Shown here one piece after another: positions 4,338-9,632 of a DNA stretch of 22,704 bases. Origin of the DNA: a virus (Duplodnaviria > Heunggongvirae > Uroviricota > Caudoviricetes); the IMG/VR virus record IMGVR_UViG_2693429524_000015. The stretch is one strand, 5' to 3'. Under the pieces are notes generated by a model. That model saw only the letters and a list, made by a program, of their open reading frames with translations, was not told the DNA's origin and ran no database searches. Positions within the stretch are counted from its first letter, which is position 1, and each line of letters begins with the position of its first letter. The position numbers and the translations under genes are program-made.

Positions 4338-7160
4338 ATGACGGCAGAGTACATCAGGGACTGGCAACAACCGCGCCACGCAGTGGGGCGTGAAGGAACG
4401 GGGATCCCCGCTCCTGAATCCGCGCTTTCCTCCTGGCTGGATGCCTACCGGGTAGAGAACGAGCGCCGCCAGGAAATGGCTGATGCGGCGTTCTCCGCCA
4501 CGCCACTGGGCAACCTGATTAATAAAAGCCTGGACGCACAGGAAAAACAGGACAAAACCATCACACTGGCAGGAGACGCCAGAAAACAGGCACGCGGCGC
4601 GGTGGATGAAGCCATGGCCTCGCTGCGCCTGCTGCCGTCCTATCTGCGCGATCCGCTTATTCGCCACCTCTCCTTCCTGCGCAAAAAACAGGAAGCCGAT
4701 CGCCGGAAAGGCAAAAAGAGCTGGCAGGCGGAACGCTATGCACGCGGAACCCTGCGCAAAATATTCGAACGTCTGGATCGCACTGACGGACACTGGCTGA
4801 CACCGGGTTATCGCTCCCTTGCCGGACGCGAACGCCTGGACGATTTGCTTTACCTGCCGCAGCTCAACAAACACCAGATACAGACGCTGGCCACCATGAC
4901 GGCGGCGATGTTCAGCAGCACCTTCGAAAAACTCTGCGATGGCTTTGGCGCGACCGATGGCGAACTGACCATGGATGTAACGCTGAAGGCGTATCAGATG
5001 CTGGCCCGCATGGCGTTACACCTGCACATCATGCCTCCACATTATGACGCACTGACAACAGATAAAGACCGGAGGAACGAACCGGACACGGAGCTGCTGC
5101 CGGGCGCAATCCTTCGCCTGACCTGTGCGGAATGGTGGAAACGCAAACTGTGGCTGTTACGTTGCGAGTGGAGAGAAGAACAACTCCGCGCCGCCTGTCT
5201 GGTTTCCAGAAAAACATCACCCTATCTGAGCCAGGACGCGTTAAGCGAGTTTCGCGCACAGCGCGAGAAAACACGCGATTTCCTGAAAAGTTTCATGCTG
5301 GAAAACGAAGACGGGTTCACGATTGATCTCGAGACAGTGTATTACGCGGGAGTAAGTAACCCGGTTCACCGTAAGGCAGAAATGATGGCCACCATGAAGG
5401 GGCTGGAACTTCTGGCCGAAGCCCGTGGCGACAAAGCGGTGTTTCTAACTGTCACCTGCCCGTCAAAATACCACGCCACAACAGAGAACGGTCATCCGAA
5501 TCCCAAATGGAACGGGGCCACCATGCGCGACTCCAGCGATTACCTGGTTAACACGTTTTTTGCAGCGGTCCGCAAGAAACTGAACCGCGACGGCCTGCGC
5601 TGGTATGGCATCCGCACGGTGGAGCCTCACCATGACGGCACCGTGCACTGGCATATGATGGTCTTTGCTCATCCGGAAGAAATCGACACCATTGTGTCCC
5701 ACACCCGCGATATTGCCATTCAGGAAGATCGTCACGAGCTGGGTGATGATATTACCCCACGCTTTAAGGCGGAGTACGTCGACGGCTCAAAAGGCACGCC
5801 AACCAGCTACATCGCCACCTACATCGGAAAGAACCTGGACAGCCGCGCCGTGGATGGCATCGACCCGAAAACGGGCAAGCCACGCGTTGACCACGAAACA
5901 GGTAAATCAATGGCCGAGAGCGTGGAGCGAGCCATCGGCTGGGCGCGCCTTCACCGGGTCCGCCAGTTCCAGTTCTTTGGCATCCCCTCCCGTCAGGTGT
6001 GGCGTGAACTCCGCCGCCTTGCCAGCCAGATGGCACGCAACCCGGAAGGCCCGCAACGGCTGAAGGATGACGCAATGGATGCGGTACTCGCTGCCGCTGA
6101 TGCCGGATGTTTTGCCACCTACATTGAAAAACAGGGTGGCGTACTTGTTCCGCGCAAGGACTACCTGATTCGCACAGCCTACGACCTCGCAGATGAGCTG
6201 AACGATTACGGCGAACAGAGTGTACAGATTTACGGGATCTGGTCGCCATTCATCGGGGAATCCTCCCGTGTGTGCACGCATCCGGATAACTGGAAGCTGG
6301 TAAGACGTAAACCGGAAGCGGAAGACAGCGCCCGCGAAAATGGTTTTGACCTTCAGGGCGGCCCTGCCGCCCCTTGGACTCGTGGCAATAACTGTCCCCG
6401 TGTACAGGAAACAGGCAACAACGGGACAGAACAGCCGGAAGAACGGCCAGCACCGTGGCCGCAGCTTCCTGACGGCGTTGAAGTAAATGAATGGATGCGC
6501 TCACTGAAACGGCACGAACGCCGGGCGCTGATGCGTTCGCTTCGTGACAAACAGGCAAAAAACAGCAGCGATGAAATGCAGAACTGGACACAGAGCCGCA
6601 AACAGCAGCGGCCTTTGCCTGATAACCACGAGTTACTCGCTAAAGAATGGCGGGAGTCTGCTGAATCTCTCGGCCTGCATATCGGTGAACAACAGATGCA
6701 GCACCTGTTACGGGGCGGCAGTCTGTACGTTGACGGCAGCATCATTGCACCGCAGGGATTTGAAATTGTACGCAAACCGGATACCCGCCCGGACAGCCGA
6801 ATCACGCAGCTCTGGCAGCGTCTGAGCCGTAATCATGGCGTAAGCAGCACGGAGATCCGCCATAACCCGGTCGCCAGCTATCTGGCACAGCTGGGGGCAT
6901 CAGACCCTGAAGCCGCCGCACGCCTGGCATCCACACTTCAGCAGGACCAGAACACCATGAAAACACCCGTTACCGTGCTTTCTGACATGCTGCGCGCCAT
7001 CCGCGACGCAGAGCACGCACAGAGAATCAGTGAAACCACTGAACGCGCCAGCCGCAAAGCAGACCTGCTGCGGGGTGGCCTGACCAGTGGAAACAAAAAA
7101 CAGACAGAAACGGGACTCACGAATCCCGTAAATGAGCAAAAAACGCGCAGCGATATATGA
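4338..7160 (+). CDS. A: Rolling-circle replication initiator endonuclease, P2 gpA-like, with a long C-terminal extension
   Basis: 940 aa. HUH-type motif VHWHMMVF and paired tyrosines SYIATYIGK (Y-x3-Y) as in P2 A. The protein is about 180 aa longer than P2 A as I recall it. Confidence 0.9.
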   Translation: MTAEYIRDWQQPRHAVGREGTGIPAPESALSSWLDAYRVENERRQEMADAAFSATPLGNLINKSLDAQEKQDKTITLAGDARKQARGAVDEAMASLRLLPSYLRDPLIRHLSFLRKKQEADRRKGKKSWQAERYARGTLRKIFERLDRTDGHWLTPGYRSLAGRERLDDLLYLPQLNKHQIQTLATMTAAMFSSTFEKLCDGFGATDGELTMDVTLKAYQMLARMALHLHIMPPHYDALTTDKDRRNEPDTELLPGAILRLTCAEWWKRKLWLLRCEWREEQLRAACLVSRKTSPYLSQDALSEFRAQREKTRDFLKSFMLENEDGFTIDLETVYYAGVSNPVHRKAEMMATMKGLELLAEARGDKAVFLTVTCPSKYHATTENGHPNPKWNGATMRDSSDYLVNTFFAAVRKKLNRDGLRWYGIRTVEPHHDGTVHWHMMVFAHPEEIDTIVSHTRDIAIQEDRHELGDDITPRFKAEYVDGSKGTPTSYIATYIGKNLDSRAVDGIDPKTGKPRVDHETGKSMAESVERAIGWARLHRVRQFQFFGIPSRQVWRELRRLASQMARNPEGPQRLKDDAMDAVLAAADAGCFATYIEKQGGVLVPRKDYLIRTAYDLADELNDYGEQSVQIYGIWSPFIGESSRVCTHPDNWKLVRRKPEAEDSARENGFDLQGGPAAPWTRGNNCPRVQETGNNGTEQPEERPAPWPQLPDGVEVNEWMRSLKRHERRALMRSLRDKQAKNSSDEMQNWTQSRKQQRPLPDNHELLAKEWRESAESLGLHIGEQQMQHLLRGGSLYVDGSIIAPQGFEIVRKPDTRPDSRITQLWQRLSRNHGVSSTEIRHNPVASYLAQLGASDPEAAARLASTLQQDQNTMKTPVTVLSDMLRAIRDAEHAQRISETTERASRKADLLRGGLTSGNKKQTETGLTNPVNEQKTRSDI

Positions 7161-7236: not shown

Positions 7237-8196
7237 ATGAAAATTTACATCGACGACGGCTCCACCAACATCAAGCTGGCATGGACTGAGAACGGCGAAC
7301 GCCGCAACGCCATCAGCCCGAACAGCTTCAAGTCGGAATGGTCTGCGCCGTTCGGTGGCTCGCAGCCTGCTAACTACATGCTTGATGGCGTGCGCTATGG
7401 TTTTGATCCGGTCAGCGATCGCTTTGTCCAGACGACCGACACGCAATACCAGTACAGCGATGTGAATGTCATTGCCATTCATCACGCGCTGGTCAAATCA
7501 GACATCACGCCACAGGAAGTGGATGTGGTTGTTACCCTGCCACTGAGCGAATATTTCGACACAAACGCACAGCCGGACATGGCCAACATCAACCGCAAAA
7601 AAGCGAACGTCATGCGCCCGGTGGAGTACCAGAACGGCGAAGCATTCACTATCCGTAACGTACGGGTTATGCCTGAATCCATTCCGGCTGGCTTTAAAGC
7701 ACTGGCTGACATGAGTCCGTTTGAATCCCTGCTGATTGTGGATTTGGGCGGAACCACGCTGGATGTGGCAAAGGTTCAGGGGCAACTGGCAGGTATCAGC
7801 CAGGTGTTTTGCGATCCACACGTAGGCGTTTCTCTTATGGCCGATGCCGTACTGTCGGTGATGGCCACTAACGGTATGCGCACCAGTCACCACATCGCCA
7901 ATACCATTATCGAACATCGCCATAATGAAGCCTGGCTGCGCCAGCACATCCACAATGACGCGCATTACGCCAGCCTGATGGCGGTTATTCGTGAAAAGGA
8001 AGAAACACTGAAACAACGCGTGATCCGCGCGCTGGCGGTTTTTTCGGGTTACGGGCGGGTGATGGTTGTCGGTGGCGGGGCGGAGATTGTGGCACCCGCT
8101 ATCCGCGAAGCCTGCGGAGTTAATGCGACTTTCATCGCGGACGGGGTGCCACAGTTTGCTCTGGTTAATGGGCTGTACGCAATGGACAAGGAGTAA
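7237..8196 (+). CDS. parM: Actin-like segregation ATPase, ParM/StbA family
   Basis: 319 aa. Actin-fold motifs MKIYIDDGSTNIKLAW, LIVDLGGTTLDV and VMVVGGGAE. From memory it aligns along its whole length with plasmid R1 ParM. RBS aaggaaa upstream. Confidence 0.8.
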   Translation: MKIYIDDGSTNIKLAWTENGERRNAISPNSFKSEWSAPFGGSQPANYMLDGVRYGFDPVSDRFVQTTDTQYQYSDVNVIAIHHALVKSDITPQEVDVVVTLPLSEYFDTNAQPDMANINRKKANVMRPVEYQNGEAFTIRNVRVMPESIPAGFKALADMSPFESLLIVDLGGTTLDVAKVQGQLAGISQVFCDPHVGVSLMADAVLSVMATNGMRTSHHIANTIIEHRHNEAWLRQHIHNDAHYASLMAVIREKEETLKQRVIRALAVFSGYGRVMVVGGGAEIVAPAIREACGVNATFIADGVPQFALVNGLYAMDKE

Positions 8197-8200
8197 ACCA

Positions 8201-8512
8201 ATGACGACACCAACCAGACGGATAAGTTTCTATCTGAAGCCCGCCGCCGTCAAGAACGAAGGAGAAGCATGCGCCTGGCTGGACAGCCTTACACCAGAAG
8301 CCCGCAAAAGCGGCCAACGCGTGGCTTTTCTGGCCGGGCTGGCACTTCTGAAGACGAATCCGGCAGAGGCTTACCGACTGGCCGCATGGGCTGATGATGA
8401 GATGTTACCTGTGACACAAATCAGCTCAAAAAAGTTTGAAGCACAGTCTGCACCAGTGGCTAAGATAACCAGCCAGATGGCTGGGAATATCCGGGCGTTA
8501 TTTCCTGAGTAA
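8201..8512 (+). CDS. parR: ParR-like centromere-binding adaptor (putative)
   Basis: 103 aa; start 4 nt after the parM stop with RBS aaggag. N-terminus RRISFYLKPAAV...AWLDSLTPEARKSGQRVAFLAGLALL resembles R1 ParR (RRTIAFKLNP...DTLDSIPQGERSRLNRAALTAGLALY) as recalled. Confidence 0.7.
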   Translation: MTTPTRRISFYLKPAAVKNEGEACAWLDSLTPEARKSGQRVAFLAGLALLKTNPAEAYRLAAWADDEMLPVTQISSKKFEAQSAPVAKITSQMAGNIRALFPE

Positions 8513-8640
8513 AAGCATCTGCGCGAAAAATGCTCACGTTTATAGAGACAGTATCATTCCATTTGGCACACTTACTTCAATAATCGATCTGTTAAACAAA
8601 TAGATTGTCTATTATCTATCGATTAAAACGATCAATTATC

Positions 8641-8668
8641 TTGACAGTAATGTGCCTTTTTGTAAGAT
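8641..8668 (+). promoter_or_regulatory. Candidate sigma70 promoter (TTGACA-N16-TAAGAT)
   Basis: ttgaca at 8641-8646 and taagat at 8663-8668, downstream of an AT-rich palindrome-rich region. Confidence 0.4.
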
Positions 8669-8774
8669 CGTTCGCATTGTGAGCGACAAGATAATTGCGC
8701 GGCATTGTCCATGCAAAACGCCCCAATAGCAGCAACTATTGGGGCGTAAAACTCGGTCGGACTCACTTAACCTG

Positions 8775-8860
8775 ATATGCGTGCCTTCCGAAGTAAATCA
8801 AAATGTGCGTCGTATATTTTATTGCTTACACGCACCTCTGTAAAGGCACGCATATTTTTC
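8775..8860 (+). terminator. Long stem-loop with T5 tail; candidate intrinsic terminator, attenuator or 3' end of a small RNA
   Basis: Perfect 13-bp arms atatgcgtgcctt (8775-8787) and aaggcacgcatat (8843-8855), enclosing an inner 6-bp stem gtgcgt/acgcac, followed by ttttt (8855-8859). Confidence 0.45.
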
Positions 8861-8876
8861 CTATGAGGTAAATAAA

Positions 8877-9146
8877 GTGCGGGCTAAAACAGGTATTTGC
8901 AAGAACCCTCATCGTTATAATCCAACATTTCTGTCTCTCCCTGAATATCAAGGACAAGAAGGTCGGCACAAATGCGCTGCCTGTGCTTTTGAGCTAGGCA
9001 TAAAAGATGCGCTTGAAGGACGCGCTATGGCTCAGAATGATTTAGTTTTAGCTAACATTCCGTTTAGCCAGGCTGGAACTGTAAGGCACAGAGATGCCTA
9101 TGAAGCATATGTTCGTGGTTGGCGATTAATAAACAGCAACAATTGA
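8877..9146 (+). CDS. Orphan 89-aa protein with Cys/His cluster (hypothetical)
   Basis: GTG start with RBS gagg 8 nt upstream. C8, H12, H31, C33, C36 could form a metal-binding site. Followed 10 nt later by a clean intrinsic terminator. No family recognised. Confidence 0.55.
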   Translation: MRAKTGICKNPHRYNPTFLSLPEYQGQEGRHKCAACAFELGIKDALEGRAMAQNDLVLANIPFSQAGTVRHRDAYEAYVRGWRLINSNN

Positions 9147-9155
9147 TACTTTTGA

Positions 9156-9178
9156 AGCGCCGATAAGGCGCTTTTTTT
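9156..9178 (+). terminator. Rho-independent terminator
   Basis: agcgcc-gataa-ggcgct stem-loop followed by tttttt. Confidence 0.7.
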
Positions 9179-9179
9179 G

Positions 9180-9330
9180 TTTGCACGATAGTGCACAAGT
9201 TTGCACAATTTTTTTGAACGACTTTTTGTACTTCCGGCCCGCGTGGTGGCTGGATCCGTCAAGGATCCGTACGTGCACAAAAAAACGCGTTTTTTCTGCG
9301 CGCAGGTGACGGGGGAACAGCCCGCGTTTC
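9180..9330. other. Candidate cos / packaging region
   Basis: Sits where P2 has cos, upstream of Q. tgcac occurs at exact 10-bp spacing (9182, 9192, 9202); ggatccgt is directly repeated; palindrome aaaaaacgcgtttttt (9280-9295); G-rich ggtgacgggggaacagcc (9306-9323) loosely resembles the P2/186 cohesive-end sequence as recalled. Confidence 0.3.
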
Positions 9331-9632
9331 AGGGGGTAAATAGCATTCCCTGAACGATGTCGCAGAGATAGAACAGAATGGCTGTATTTCTCACGCTGAG
9401 CGTGAAAAAGACGTGAGGGCTTTTGATTTGATGGGGTGAAAGGTAAGGCCGTCAAAATCGCACTGAGACGGCGAGAACATGCAGTCAACGCGGTGGGATT
9501 GCGTAAGAGTCTGACTGTCGATGATGGCAATCAGCAGGAAAGCATCGTGAAATTATCTGACTGATACAGGAGCTGGAGAGTCGGGGCATAAATTTTTTAT
9601 GCCCCGGCGAAGCAGCAGACAAGCGAAGCGCG

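Follow-up and report, generated by a model that had tools for sequence, protein, structure and literature searches.

A probable antisense RNA and switchable leader upstream of an orphan prophage gene

Elements of the leader region

The window analyzed here, a 22,704-nucleotide stretch of DNA held as IMG/VR record IMGVR_UViG_2693429524_000015, comes from a P2-like Escherichia coli prophage (Xuanwuvirus). Our subject is the segment that separates the partition genes of this prophage from a small downstream gene encoding a hypothetical protein of 89 amino acids (aa). An earlier sequence-only reading had proposed that about 190 nucleotides (nt) of this segment form either a stand-alone small RNA (sRNA) or a cis-regulatory leader gating the downstream gene. 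Comparison with homologous loci points to RNA elements on both strands. The elements of the segment, referred to below as the cassette together with its gene, are as follows.

8580-8605 / 8614-8639, no strand assigned: imperfect 26-nt inverted repeat just 5' of the plus-strand promoter, arms 73% complementary
8641-8668, plus strand: predicted sigma-70-type promoter TTGACA-16-TAAGAT, found by a promoter scan and conserved in homologues; transcription would start near 8675
8675-8876, plus strand: predicted 5' leader of the phrog_3941 messenger RNA (mRNA), about 202 nt, made up of a 5' domain, P2, a linker, P3, and the ribosome-binding region
8679-8687 / 8756-8766, plus strand: closing helix of the leader 5' domain, which also holds a small hairpin at 8695-8716
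8714-8809, minus strand: predicted cis-antisense RNA, about 96 nt, its ends placed from the promoter and P2
8718-8747, minus strand: P2, a GC-rich hairpin of 12 bp, interpreted as terminating or stabilizing the 3' end of the antisense RNA
8774-8856, plus strand: P3, the long leader hairpin of about 83 nt
8775-8787, plus strand: 5' arm of P3 (arm A), atatgcgtgcctt, forming a perfect 13-bp outer stem with arm B
8805-8810 / 8830-8835, plus strand: inner stem of P3, gtgcgt/acgcac
8843-8855, plus strand: 3' arm of P3 (arm B), aaggcacgcatat, the partner of arm A in the outer stem
8844..8816, minus strand: predicted antisense promoter inside P3, with -35 TTTACA (8844..8839), a 17-nt spacer, and -10 TAAAAT (8821..8816), found by the promoter scan
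8855-8859, plus strand: T5 run, whose first T is the last base of the stem, hence four U past the stem
8857-8885, plus strand: translation initiation region, with the anti-Shine-Dalgarno sequence UUUCCU at 8857-8862, the Shine-Dalgarno (SD) sequence GAGG at 8865-8868, and the start codon GTG at 8877
8877-9146, plus strand: gene of the 89-aa hypothetical protein
9154-9181, plus strand: intrinsic terminator ending the cassette, an 8-bp stem followed by a T-run, called by a terminator scan

The structures named in the sequence-only reading are all present, with small corrections to their coordinates: the hairpin gccccaatag/ctattggggc (8720-8729/8736-8745, extendable to 12 bp), the 13-bp outer stem, the inner stem, and the T5 run. 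Its view of the region as structured was borne out by folding, the 193 nt of 8670-8862 having a minimum free energy of -65.9 kcal/mol in comparison with -45.6 +/- 3.75 kcal/mol for 200 dinucleotide shuffles (z -5.41; one shuffle as good). The P3 region alone gave z -3.74. Three small open reading frames (ORFs) in the leader, one on the plus strand (8739-8843, 34 aa, TTG start) and two on the minus strand (8632-8766 and 8616-8735), were rejected as non-coding, their frame and sequence being unconserved in the homologues L003 and L006.

We extracted about 50 distinct upstream regions of related genes, and about 45 of them, from Enterobacterales and Gilliamella, carry the leader. Its elements follow a common order: a plus-strand promoter with a GATC at about -46, a 5' hairpin, GGAAA and P2, an A-rich linker, and P3. 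Further common elements are an invariant TGTAAAG in the 3' part of P3 and a short hairpin or pairing involving the SD or the start codon. Equivalents of the plus-strand promoter (TTGAnn-16/18-TAnnAT) were found in nearly all homologous leaders, the exceptions being L088 (-35 TAGAAA) and L070 (-10 CAGGAT). The earlier proposal of a cis-regulatory leader thus stands: the leader of the downstream gene is both structured and conserved. Between the window type and the type represented by L003, an identity of about 75% ends exactly at the end of P2, past which the P3 sequences are unrelated and yet fold alike.

Besides other P2-like prophages (L003, L004), where it lies in the hotspot between the gpA and portal genes, the cassette is found directly after the cI repressor in a Salmonella P22-like phage and in Cronobacter lambdoid prophages (cI-N), between Q and the lysis genes in a Providencia phage, and after an S24 repressor in a P4-like element of Gilliamella. 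The occurrence in four different mobile-element contexts indicates that the cassette moves as a unit. Related versions are present in Salmonella P22-like phages, Providencia, Proteus, Yersinia, Rahnella, Cronobacter, and Gilliamella; no similar DNA was found in the plasmid collection.

Conservation and strand of the RNA elements

When whole leaders were aligned and folded (MAFFT and RNAalifold), neither P2 nor the outer P3 stem kept one register across subgroups. We therefore dropped column counts for P3 in favor of a duplex test and realigned P2 with a covariance model. As the leaders are phylogenetically related, statistics from alignment shuffles make them look more independent than they are; this weighs less on the slid-partner control, the strand asymmetry, and the between-group duplex test.

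The P2 covariance model, built on the minus strand, gave exactly one match per locus, each antisense to the gene (in the window 8710-8770 on the minus strand, 47.8 bits), and no match in relatives without the leader. In the alignment of 36 distinct sequences obtained with it, compensatory changes were observed in 11 of the 12 pairs. Paired cells amounted to 90.5%, in comparison with 67.1% in shuffles (0/500), and the covariation score was 0.666 versus 0.231 (0/500), with partner-slid controls at or below 0.20. Compensatory change in the stems, whose absence would have counted against the sequence-only reading, is thus seen in P2, whereas the conservation of P3 lies only in its architecture and cognate complementarity.

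The substitutions in P2 also indicate its strand. We counted internal transition mismatches in 31 distinct hairpins in a strand-symmetric way: they formed G.U pairs on the minus strand in 10 cases, representing about 8-9 independent events, and on the plus strand in none. The runs on either side of the hairpin are U on the minus strand and A on the plus strand, and in 16 of 22 cases its minus-strand form is the stabler. Minus-strand P2 has the GC-rich stem (12-13 bp) and short loop (4-6 nt) of a terminator, with -23.2 kcal/mol. Since only the minus-strand form tolerates G.U pairs, the terminator of a cis-antisense RNA is the best reading of P2. The sequence-only reading had placed the 10-bp hairpin in a plus-strand transcript; its flanks, its G.U pairs, and its position at the end of the predicted minus-strand transcript speak for the other strand. 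P2 as a terminator of the upstream parMR operon was considered and rejected, since a plus-strand U-tract is lacking and P2 accompanies the cassette into contexts without parMR. In the Cronobacter lambdoid prophages L096 and L097, the P2 model has a weak second match (2291-2354 on the plus strand, 24 bits, E 0.008) that spans the gap from a DUF2740 gene (2132-2278) to the 3' end of cII (2313-2594). This may simply be a terminator-like hairpin; the OOP RNA of lambda is antisense to the 3' end of cII.

Inside P3, the layout of the predicted antisense promoter, TTTAC(A/T)-17-TAnnnT, recurs in every distinct homologous leader, while the spacer sequences vary. We found ten different -10 hexamers (TAAAAT, TACGAT, TAGACT, TAATCT, TACTCT, TACAAT, TAGAAT, TAGTAT, TAAACT, and TAACCT), all with T1, A2, and T6. 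On the plus strand, TGTAAAG, which contains the complement of the -35 TTTACA, is invariant regardless of whether it is paired in P3, which fits a promoter better than a constraint from RNA structure. Such a predicted promoter, conserved on the opposite strand within the target transcript, is as expected of a cis-encoded antisense regulator.

Judged from these elements, the opposite strand of the leader appears to encode an antisense RNA of roughly 95 bases. Its predicted start lies near 8808-8810 and is followed by the complement of arm A, the linker, and P2. The predicted length is 66-96 nt across homologues and 137 nt in one with an insertion. It is predicted to fold into a stem-loop at the 5' end, then a U-rich stretch and a terminal hairpin (z -4.19 in the window), and the predicted antisense RNAs of the homologues share this architecture (z -3.5 to -5.0). 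The overlap with the leader would stop about 55-65 nt 5' of the SD, leaving the ribosome-binding site outside. The stand-alone sRNA of about 190 nt is unlikely, as the T-run terminator that would end it is unconserved and the hairpin belongs to the minus strand; the evidence suggests an RNA of about 95 nt on the other strand.

The long hairpin shows the opposite strand preference. A single long P3 was predicted in all 13 group representatives (z -2.3 to -6.6), with sequences unrelated between groups, and the plus-strand form was the stabler in 19 of 22 cases, with a mean difference of -4.0 kcal/mol. The greater stability of P3 on the plus strand and of P2 on the minus strand assigns P3 to the mRNA leader and P2 to the minus-strand RNA. 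Among window-type variants, substitutions are confined to the loops.

Arm B appears to have two partners. We compared 13 x 13 cognate and non-cognate duplexes in a register-free manner and assessed the difference by permutation. Arm B paired with its own arm A averages -14.3 kcal/mol, in comparison with -8.0 kcal/mol for the arm A of other groups (p about 5e-5), and with its own initiation region -11.4 versus -7.1 kcal/mol for non-cognate ones (p about 5e-5), the cognate initiation region being the top-ranked of 13 in 7 cases. In the window, positions 8877-8885 at the start of the gene read GTGCGGGCT, a mimic of arm A (ATGCGTGCC) that is able to pair with arm B. When the antisense target was masked from folding, 8849-8853 of arm B paired with 8877-8881, including the GTG start, 8845-8847 paired with 8883-8885, and UUUCCU at 8857-8862 paired with the SD. 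The unpaired probability of the start codon in the window type fell from 0.40 to 0.05, and the effect of masking has the same direction in most of 23 representatives.

The downstream gene, its relatives, and GATC sites

The 89-aa ORF is a real gene. It matches phrog_3941 (E 9e-49), is listed as hypothetical in RefSeq, and is intact in the E. coli records inspected (L001, L002). A profile search found 1117 relatives, all unnamed; there was no match to the 89-aa protein in Pfam or NCBIfam, and none in PADLOC-DB 2.0 for either the window protein or its L003 relative. Conserved motifs are ICxKxHRY, RHKCxGCA, and SQAGxVRHKDAxEAY, and the invariant residues are C8, H12, R13, R30, H31, C33, C36, S64-Q65-A66, R70, H71, and Y78. 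The sequence has no hydrophobic segment, and the protein looks soluble and helical with its Cys/His motifs; an AlphaFold (AF2) model is likewise helical (pLDDT 85.8) and matched no known fold. In L003 and L004, a second small gene (95 aa, phrog_33929; 4626-4913 and 4614-4901, respectively) lies 3' of the phrog_3941 gene, which is itself unannotated in the RefSeq records of both.

Relatives from outside Enterobacterales are found in DpnII-type restriction-modification (R-M) operons in seven of the nine neighborhoods sampled (L011, L013, L014, P0117, P0109, P0039, and P0108, with L013 assigned by an upstream ORF resembling that of L011); the other two neighborhoods are a dnaK operon and an unrelated locus. 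The operons contain a Dam-like methylase (PF02086), a DpnII nuclease (PF04556), and an N6_N4 methylase (PF01555) in varying order, and in operons of other phyla the relatives sit between the Dam-like methylase and the DpnII nuclease. The R-M-linked relatives come from Firmicutes, Spirochaetes, and Elusimicrobia metagenome-assembled genomes (L011 1092-3035; L014 1314-3264; L101-L110; L121-L126), and the genes of these operons often overlap or abut, with no long leader. A family member in mouse-gut metagenomes (P0092; L111-L115) is part of a heat-shock operon, hrcA-grpE-X-dnaK-dnaJ, in which it takes the place X between grpE and dnaK.

The tetranucleotide GATC, on which DpnII enzymes act, is about fourfold enriched between -60 and the start codon of the leader regions, with 15.3 sites per kb in comparison with about 4 expected. 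Other four-nucleotide palindromes containing GC occur at 0.2-6.4 per kb, and ATAT and TATA at 9.6-11.8. Relative to the plus-strand start, the conserved GATC positions are about -46, -10, +96, and +126; the site at about -46 is present in 22 of 23 representative homologues and that at the -10 of the plus-strand promoter in many. Many homologues also have GATC at the antisense +1 region (GAGATCTC) and beside the antisense -35. In the window type, the sites are at 8630-8633 (-46), 8666-8669 (overlapping the -10), and 8586-8589, within the 26-nt dyad. This dyad has ATCGAT/GATC in both arms and shares about 75% identity with the L003 and L004 prophages, while being unshared with the lambdoid contexts; an operator, a Dam site, and a parC-like centromere are candidate roles. 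The conservation of the GATC sites suggests Dam-dependent control or GATC-containing operators, and together with the DpnII operons of the relatives the sites suggest that the gene and its control region may both be tied to GATC methylation.

For positions 8500-9200 of the window, E. coli O157:H7 FRIK944 and many other strains have a chromosomal sequence with 100% identity, and Escherichia phages 520873 and 503458 (Peduoviridae, Xuanwuvirus) have one with 98-99% identity. Of 5426 complete E. coli genomes, 166 have the window-type cassette, O157:H7 and O111 strains among them. Its position corresponds to the gpA-portal variable region of P2-like phages, a hotspot of accessory and defense genes, with the following neighbors.

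4338-7160: replication endonuclease gpA, first in gene order
7237-8196: ParM (PF06406/PF21523), between gpA and the cassette
about 8201-8512: ParR/StbB-like protein (PF10784), 3' of ParM
ParR to the 89-aa gene: gap of 364 nt, empty in the current genome annotation
past the cassette terminator, opposite strand: portal and terminase genes

The gpA protein has 940 aa, of which the Phage_GPA domain spans residues 179-503 alone, leaving long N- and C-terminal extensions. This P2-like prophage carries a plasmid-type actin-like partition pair, ParM and ParR/StbB (window 7237-8512), and the AT-rich dyad at 8580-8639, 3' of parR, is one candidate centromere for the pair. Phage 503458 (L129) has single-base deletions in homopolymer runs at the equivalents of window positions 8639, 8817, 8928, 9075, and 9085, some of them within the ORF; these look like sequencing errors rather than real pseudogenization. 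In E. coli CH4793 (L130), an IS1 element with an 8-bp duplication lies in the interior of P3, at the equivalent of window 8799-8806. It cuts the leader in two, leaving the plus-strand promoter with arm A on one side and arm B with the ORF on the other, and likewise parts the antisense promoter from its target.

Proposed control, rival readings, and known systems

On balance, we consider it probable that the region is a two-strand RNA control module, an antisense RNA combined with a switchable leader, that serves a self-contained prophage accessory gene. The proposal builds on the computed structures, their conservation and covariation, the strand selected for each, the conservation of both promoters, and the complementarity between arm A, arm B, and the start site. 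The promoter at 8641-8668 would drive an mRNA whose leader is about 200 nt long. In the free leader, pairing of arm A (8775-8787) with arm B (8843-8855) in P3 would keep arm B off the ribosome-binding region, and the start site would be open. The promoter at 8844..8816 would drive the antisense RNA of about 96 nt, ending at P2 (8747..8718) and a short U-tract. As this RNA would be complementary to the leader over the whole stretch between arm A and P2, both included, its pairing would capture arm A; the freed arm B and UUUCCU would then close the start region (8877-8885) and the SD by pairing, turning translation off. Duplex cleavage and the collision of convergent transcription may add to the repression. 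We infer that both RNAs are made, with ends at about the positions given, and that antisense pairing represses expression rather than accompanying it.

Several observations weigh against this proposal. The promoter scan was at chance level in the window alone (2 sites found, 2.1 expected), and the support for both promoters thus comes from their conservation across homologues and not from the scan. The U-tract past minus-strand P2 is short (UUUUG in the window, UUUCC in most homologues, and GCUUCU in the Proteus type) and the terminator scan makes no call there, such that the terminator quality of P2 on this strand is borderline. The window-type P3 is one of the three exceptions to the strand preference, being slightly stabler on the minus strand (-31.8 versus -29.1 kcal/mol), and its 13-bp stem is invariant among close relatives, so that the support for it is architectural and not base by base. 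On masking, L056, L074, L076, and L079 shift the opposite way, and in L003, L006, L081, and L084 the initiation region is predicted to be closed whether masked or not, meaning that the switch, thermodynamically clear in the window type, is not so in all homologues. Lambdoid-type leaders also offer arm A a second partner, the A-rich linker, in an extra helix that competes with P3.

The sequence-only reading had seen in the outer stem and T5 run a terminator or attenuator, in which case most plus-strand transcripts would end near 8858 as an RNA of about 185 nt and regulated read-through would express the ORF. The perfect 13-14-bp stem of the window with four U directly after it and the T-rich sequence past P3 in most homologue groups agree with this, and partial termination at 8856-8859 is possible in the window variant. 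A hairpin of about 83 nt with a large interior is nevertheless atypical of a terminator, and the terminator scan makes no call here; moreover, L008 and L015 lack the T-run, other homologues have it shifted by 2-4 nt, and where it occurs it is mostly the loop or anti-SD part of an SD-sequestering hairpin. As termination would also leave the conserved antisense promoter and the complementarity of arm B to the start site unexplained, we regard it as quite improbable. The predicted antisense RNA, the long structured 5' untranslated region (UTR), and the sequestered start site are, on the other hand, hallmarks of type I toxin-antitoxin (TA) loci such as hok/sok, tisB/istR, zorO/orzO, and ralR/ralA. 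The cassette might then, with unchanged RNA mechanics, be a TA or abortive-infection system with a toxic 89-aa protein, an antisense antitoxin, and a locked leader that stops leaky translation. Its location in prophage hotspots known for defense genes (P2 gpA-portal; lambdoid after cI) and the IS1 inside the leader of one E. coli strain would suit such a system. The protein is, however, not of the small hydrophobic kind and has no PADLOC match, its ORF is intact in the records inspected, and the relatives without the leader in other phyla, in R-M operons and even in a dnaK operon, argue against strong intrinsic toxicity. On this evidence, a toxin seems unlikely.

The inverted repeats might also act as DNA, as operators or as Dam/SeqA-type or recombination sites, with the RNA folds as by-products. 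The fourfold enrichment of GATC at conserved positions in both promoters, the 26-nt dyad 5' of the plus-strand promoter, and the perfect palindrome that the antisense +1 sequence forms in many homologues would fit such sites. Strand symmetry is expected of DNA sites, yet the G.U pairs of P2 are confined to the minus strand (10 versus 0) and P3 is stabler on the plus strand by 4 kcal/mol on average; the arms of P3 pair despite sequences that are unrelated between groups, and the match of arm B to the start site has no rationale at the DNA level. We thus find an explanation by DNA sites without functional RNAs highly improbable, while promoter control at the DNA level can coexist with the RNA mechanism. 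One such combination, to which we give little credence in its full form, is that the cassette senses its own GATC methylation and gates an accessory factor of a GATC-specific R-M system. The occupancy of conserved Dam sites in the facing promoters would decide how much mRNA is made relative to antisense RNA, and the leader switch would make translation all-or-none. The Cys/His protein might regulate or inhibit GATC restriction, or read methylation, and temperate phages of Dam+ enterobacteria would have captured its gene for anti-restriction, defense, or replication-linked timing. The double link to GATC, through conserved Dam sites and relatives in DpnII operons, is a testable lead for an unannotated family of more than 1100 members.

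Searches of known RNA families gave little similarity. Rfam 15 had no match at the gathering threshold in the window and one tRNA only in 11 homologous loci, and a permissive search of 8450-9350 returned only chance-level matches. The best sub-threshold matches fall on the minus strand of P2 (22 bits, E 0.07-0.1, in comparison with gathering thresholds of 43-45); the families compared include sar (RF00262), ctRNA_pGA1 (RF00236), and Spot_42 (RF00021). Full-text literature searches turned up no description of the leader RNA or the 89-aa protein, and the papers PMC7067206 and PMC2629481 on prophage antisense RNAs cover other RNAs, STnc6030 and sar/OOP.

The two-strand module nevertheless resembles several known systems. 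With the type I TA loci (hok/sok, zorO/orzO, tisB/istR-1, and ralR/ralA) it shares a short predicted antisense RNA that ends in a hairpin, a long 5' UTR whose folding can lock the ribosome-binding region, and carriage by prophages or plasmids. It differs in that the protein has 81-93 aa and looks soluble, whereas the toxins are usually under 60 aa and hydrophobic or otherwise toxic, in that the predicted antisense RNA overlaps neither the ribosome-binding site nor a leader ORF, and in lacking sequence or Rfam similarity. Complementarity of the two RNAs is conditional on the antisense RNA being made, and the predicted sequestration of the start is non-uniform across homologues. The RNA-IN/RNA-OUT pair of IS10/Tn10 has, like the cassette, facing promoters, an antisense RNA, predicted here and in the case of RNA-OUT stable and about 70 nt long, from a promoter in the 5' region of the target, and GATC in promoters, which could couple expression to methylation, pIN being Dam-sensitive. 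However, RNA-OUT covers the ribosome-binding site of RNA-IN directly, whereas the antisense RNA here is predicted to act by refolding, and a Dam dependence of the cassette is suggested by GATC conservation.

In R1 CopA/CopT and ColIb-P9 Inc RNA/repZ, as proposed here, a cis-antisense RNA binds the leader 5' of the ribosome-binding site and exerts an indirect effect downstream. Unlike in these copy-number systems, no leader peptide or pseudoknot was identified in the cassette, the candidate upstream ORFs are unconserved, and the gene is a prophage accessory rather than a replication gene. P22 sar, lambda OOP, and P1/P7 c4 are small phage antisense RNAs that likewise end in a GC hairpin, and the terminator parts of sar and ctRNA_pGA1 have a weak, sub-threshold similarity to minus-strand P2. 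The targets of the phage RNAs are other ones (ant, cII), and to our knowledge the three-segment arrangement of arm A, arm B, and start site has not been described for sar, OOP, or c4. The module thus looks like cis-antisense control of a mobile-element gene, as in these known systems. Found in no RNA family database or paper, it would add a widespread and apparently undescribed RNA control module to them, and through it the orphan ORF stands out as an accessory gene under tight control that moves horizontally and sits in prophage hotspots of defense and exclusion functions.

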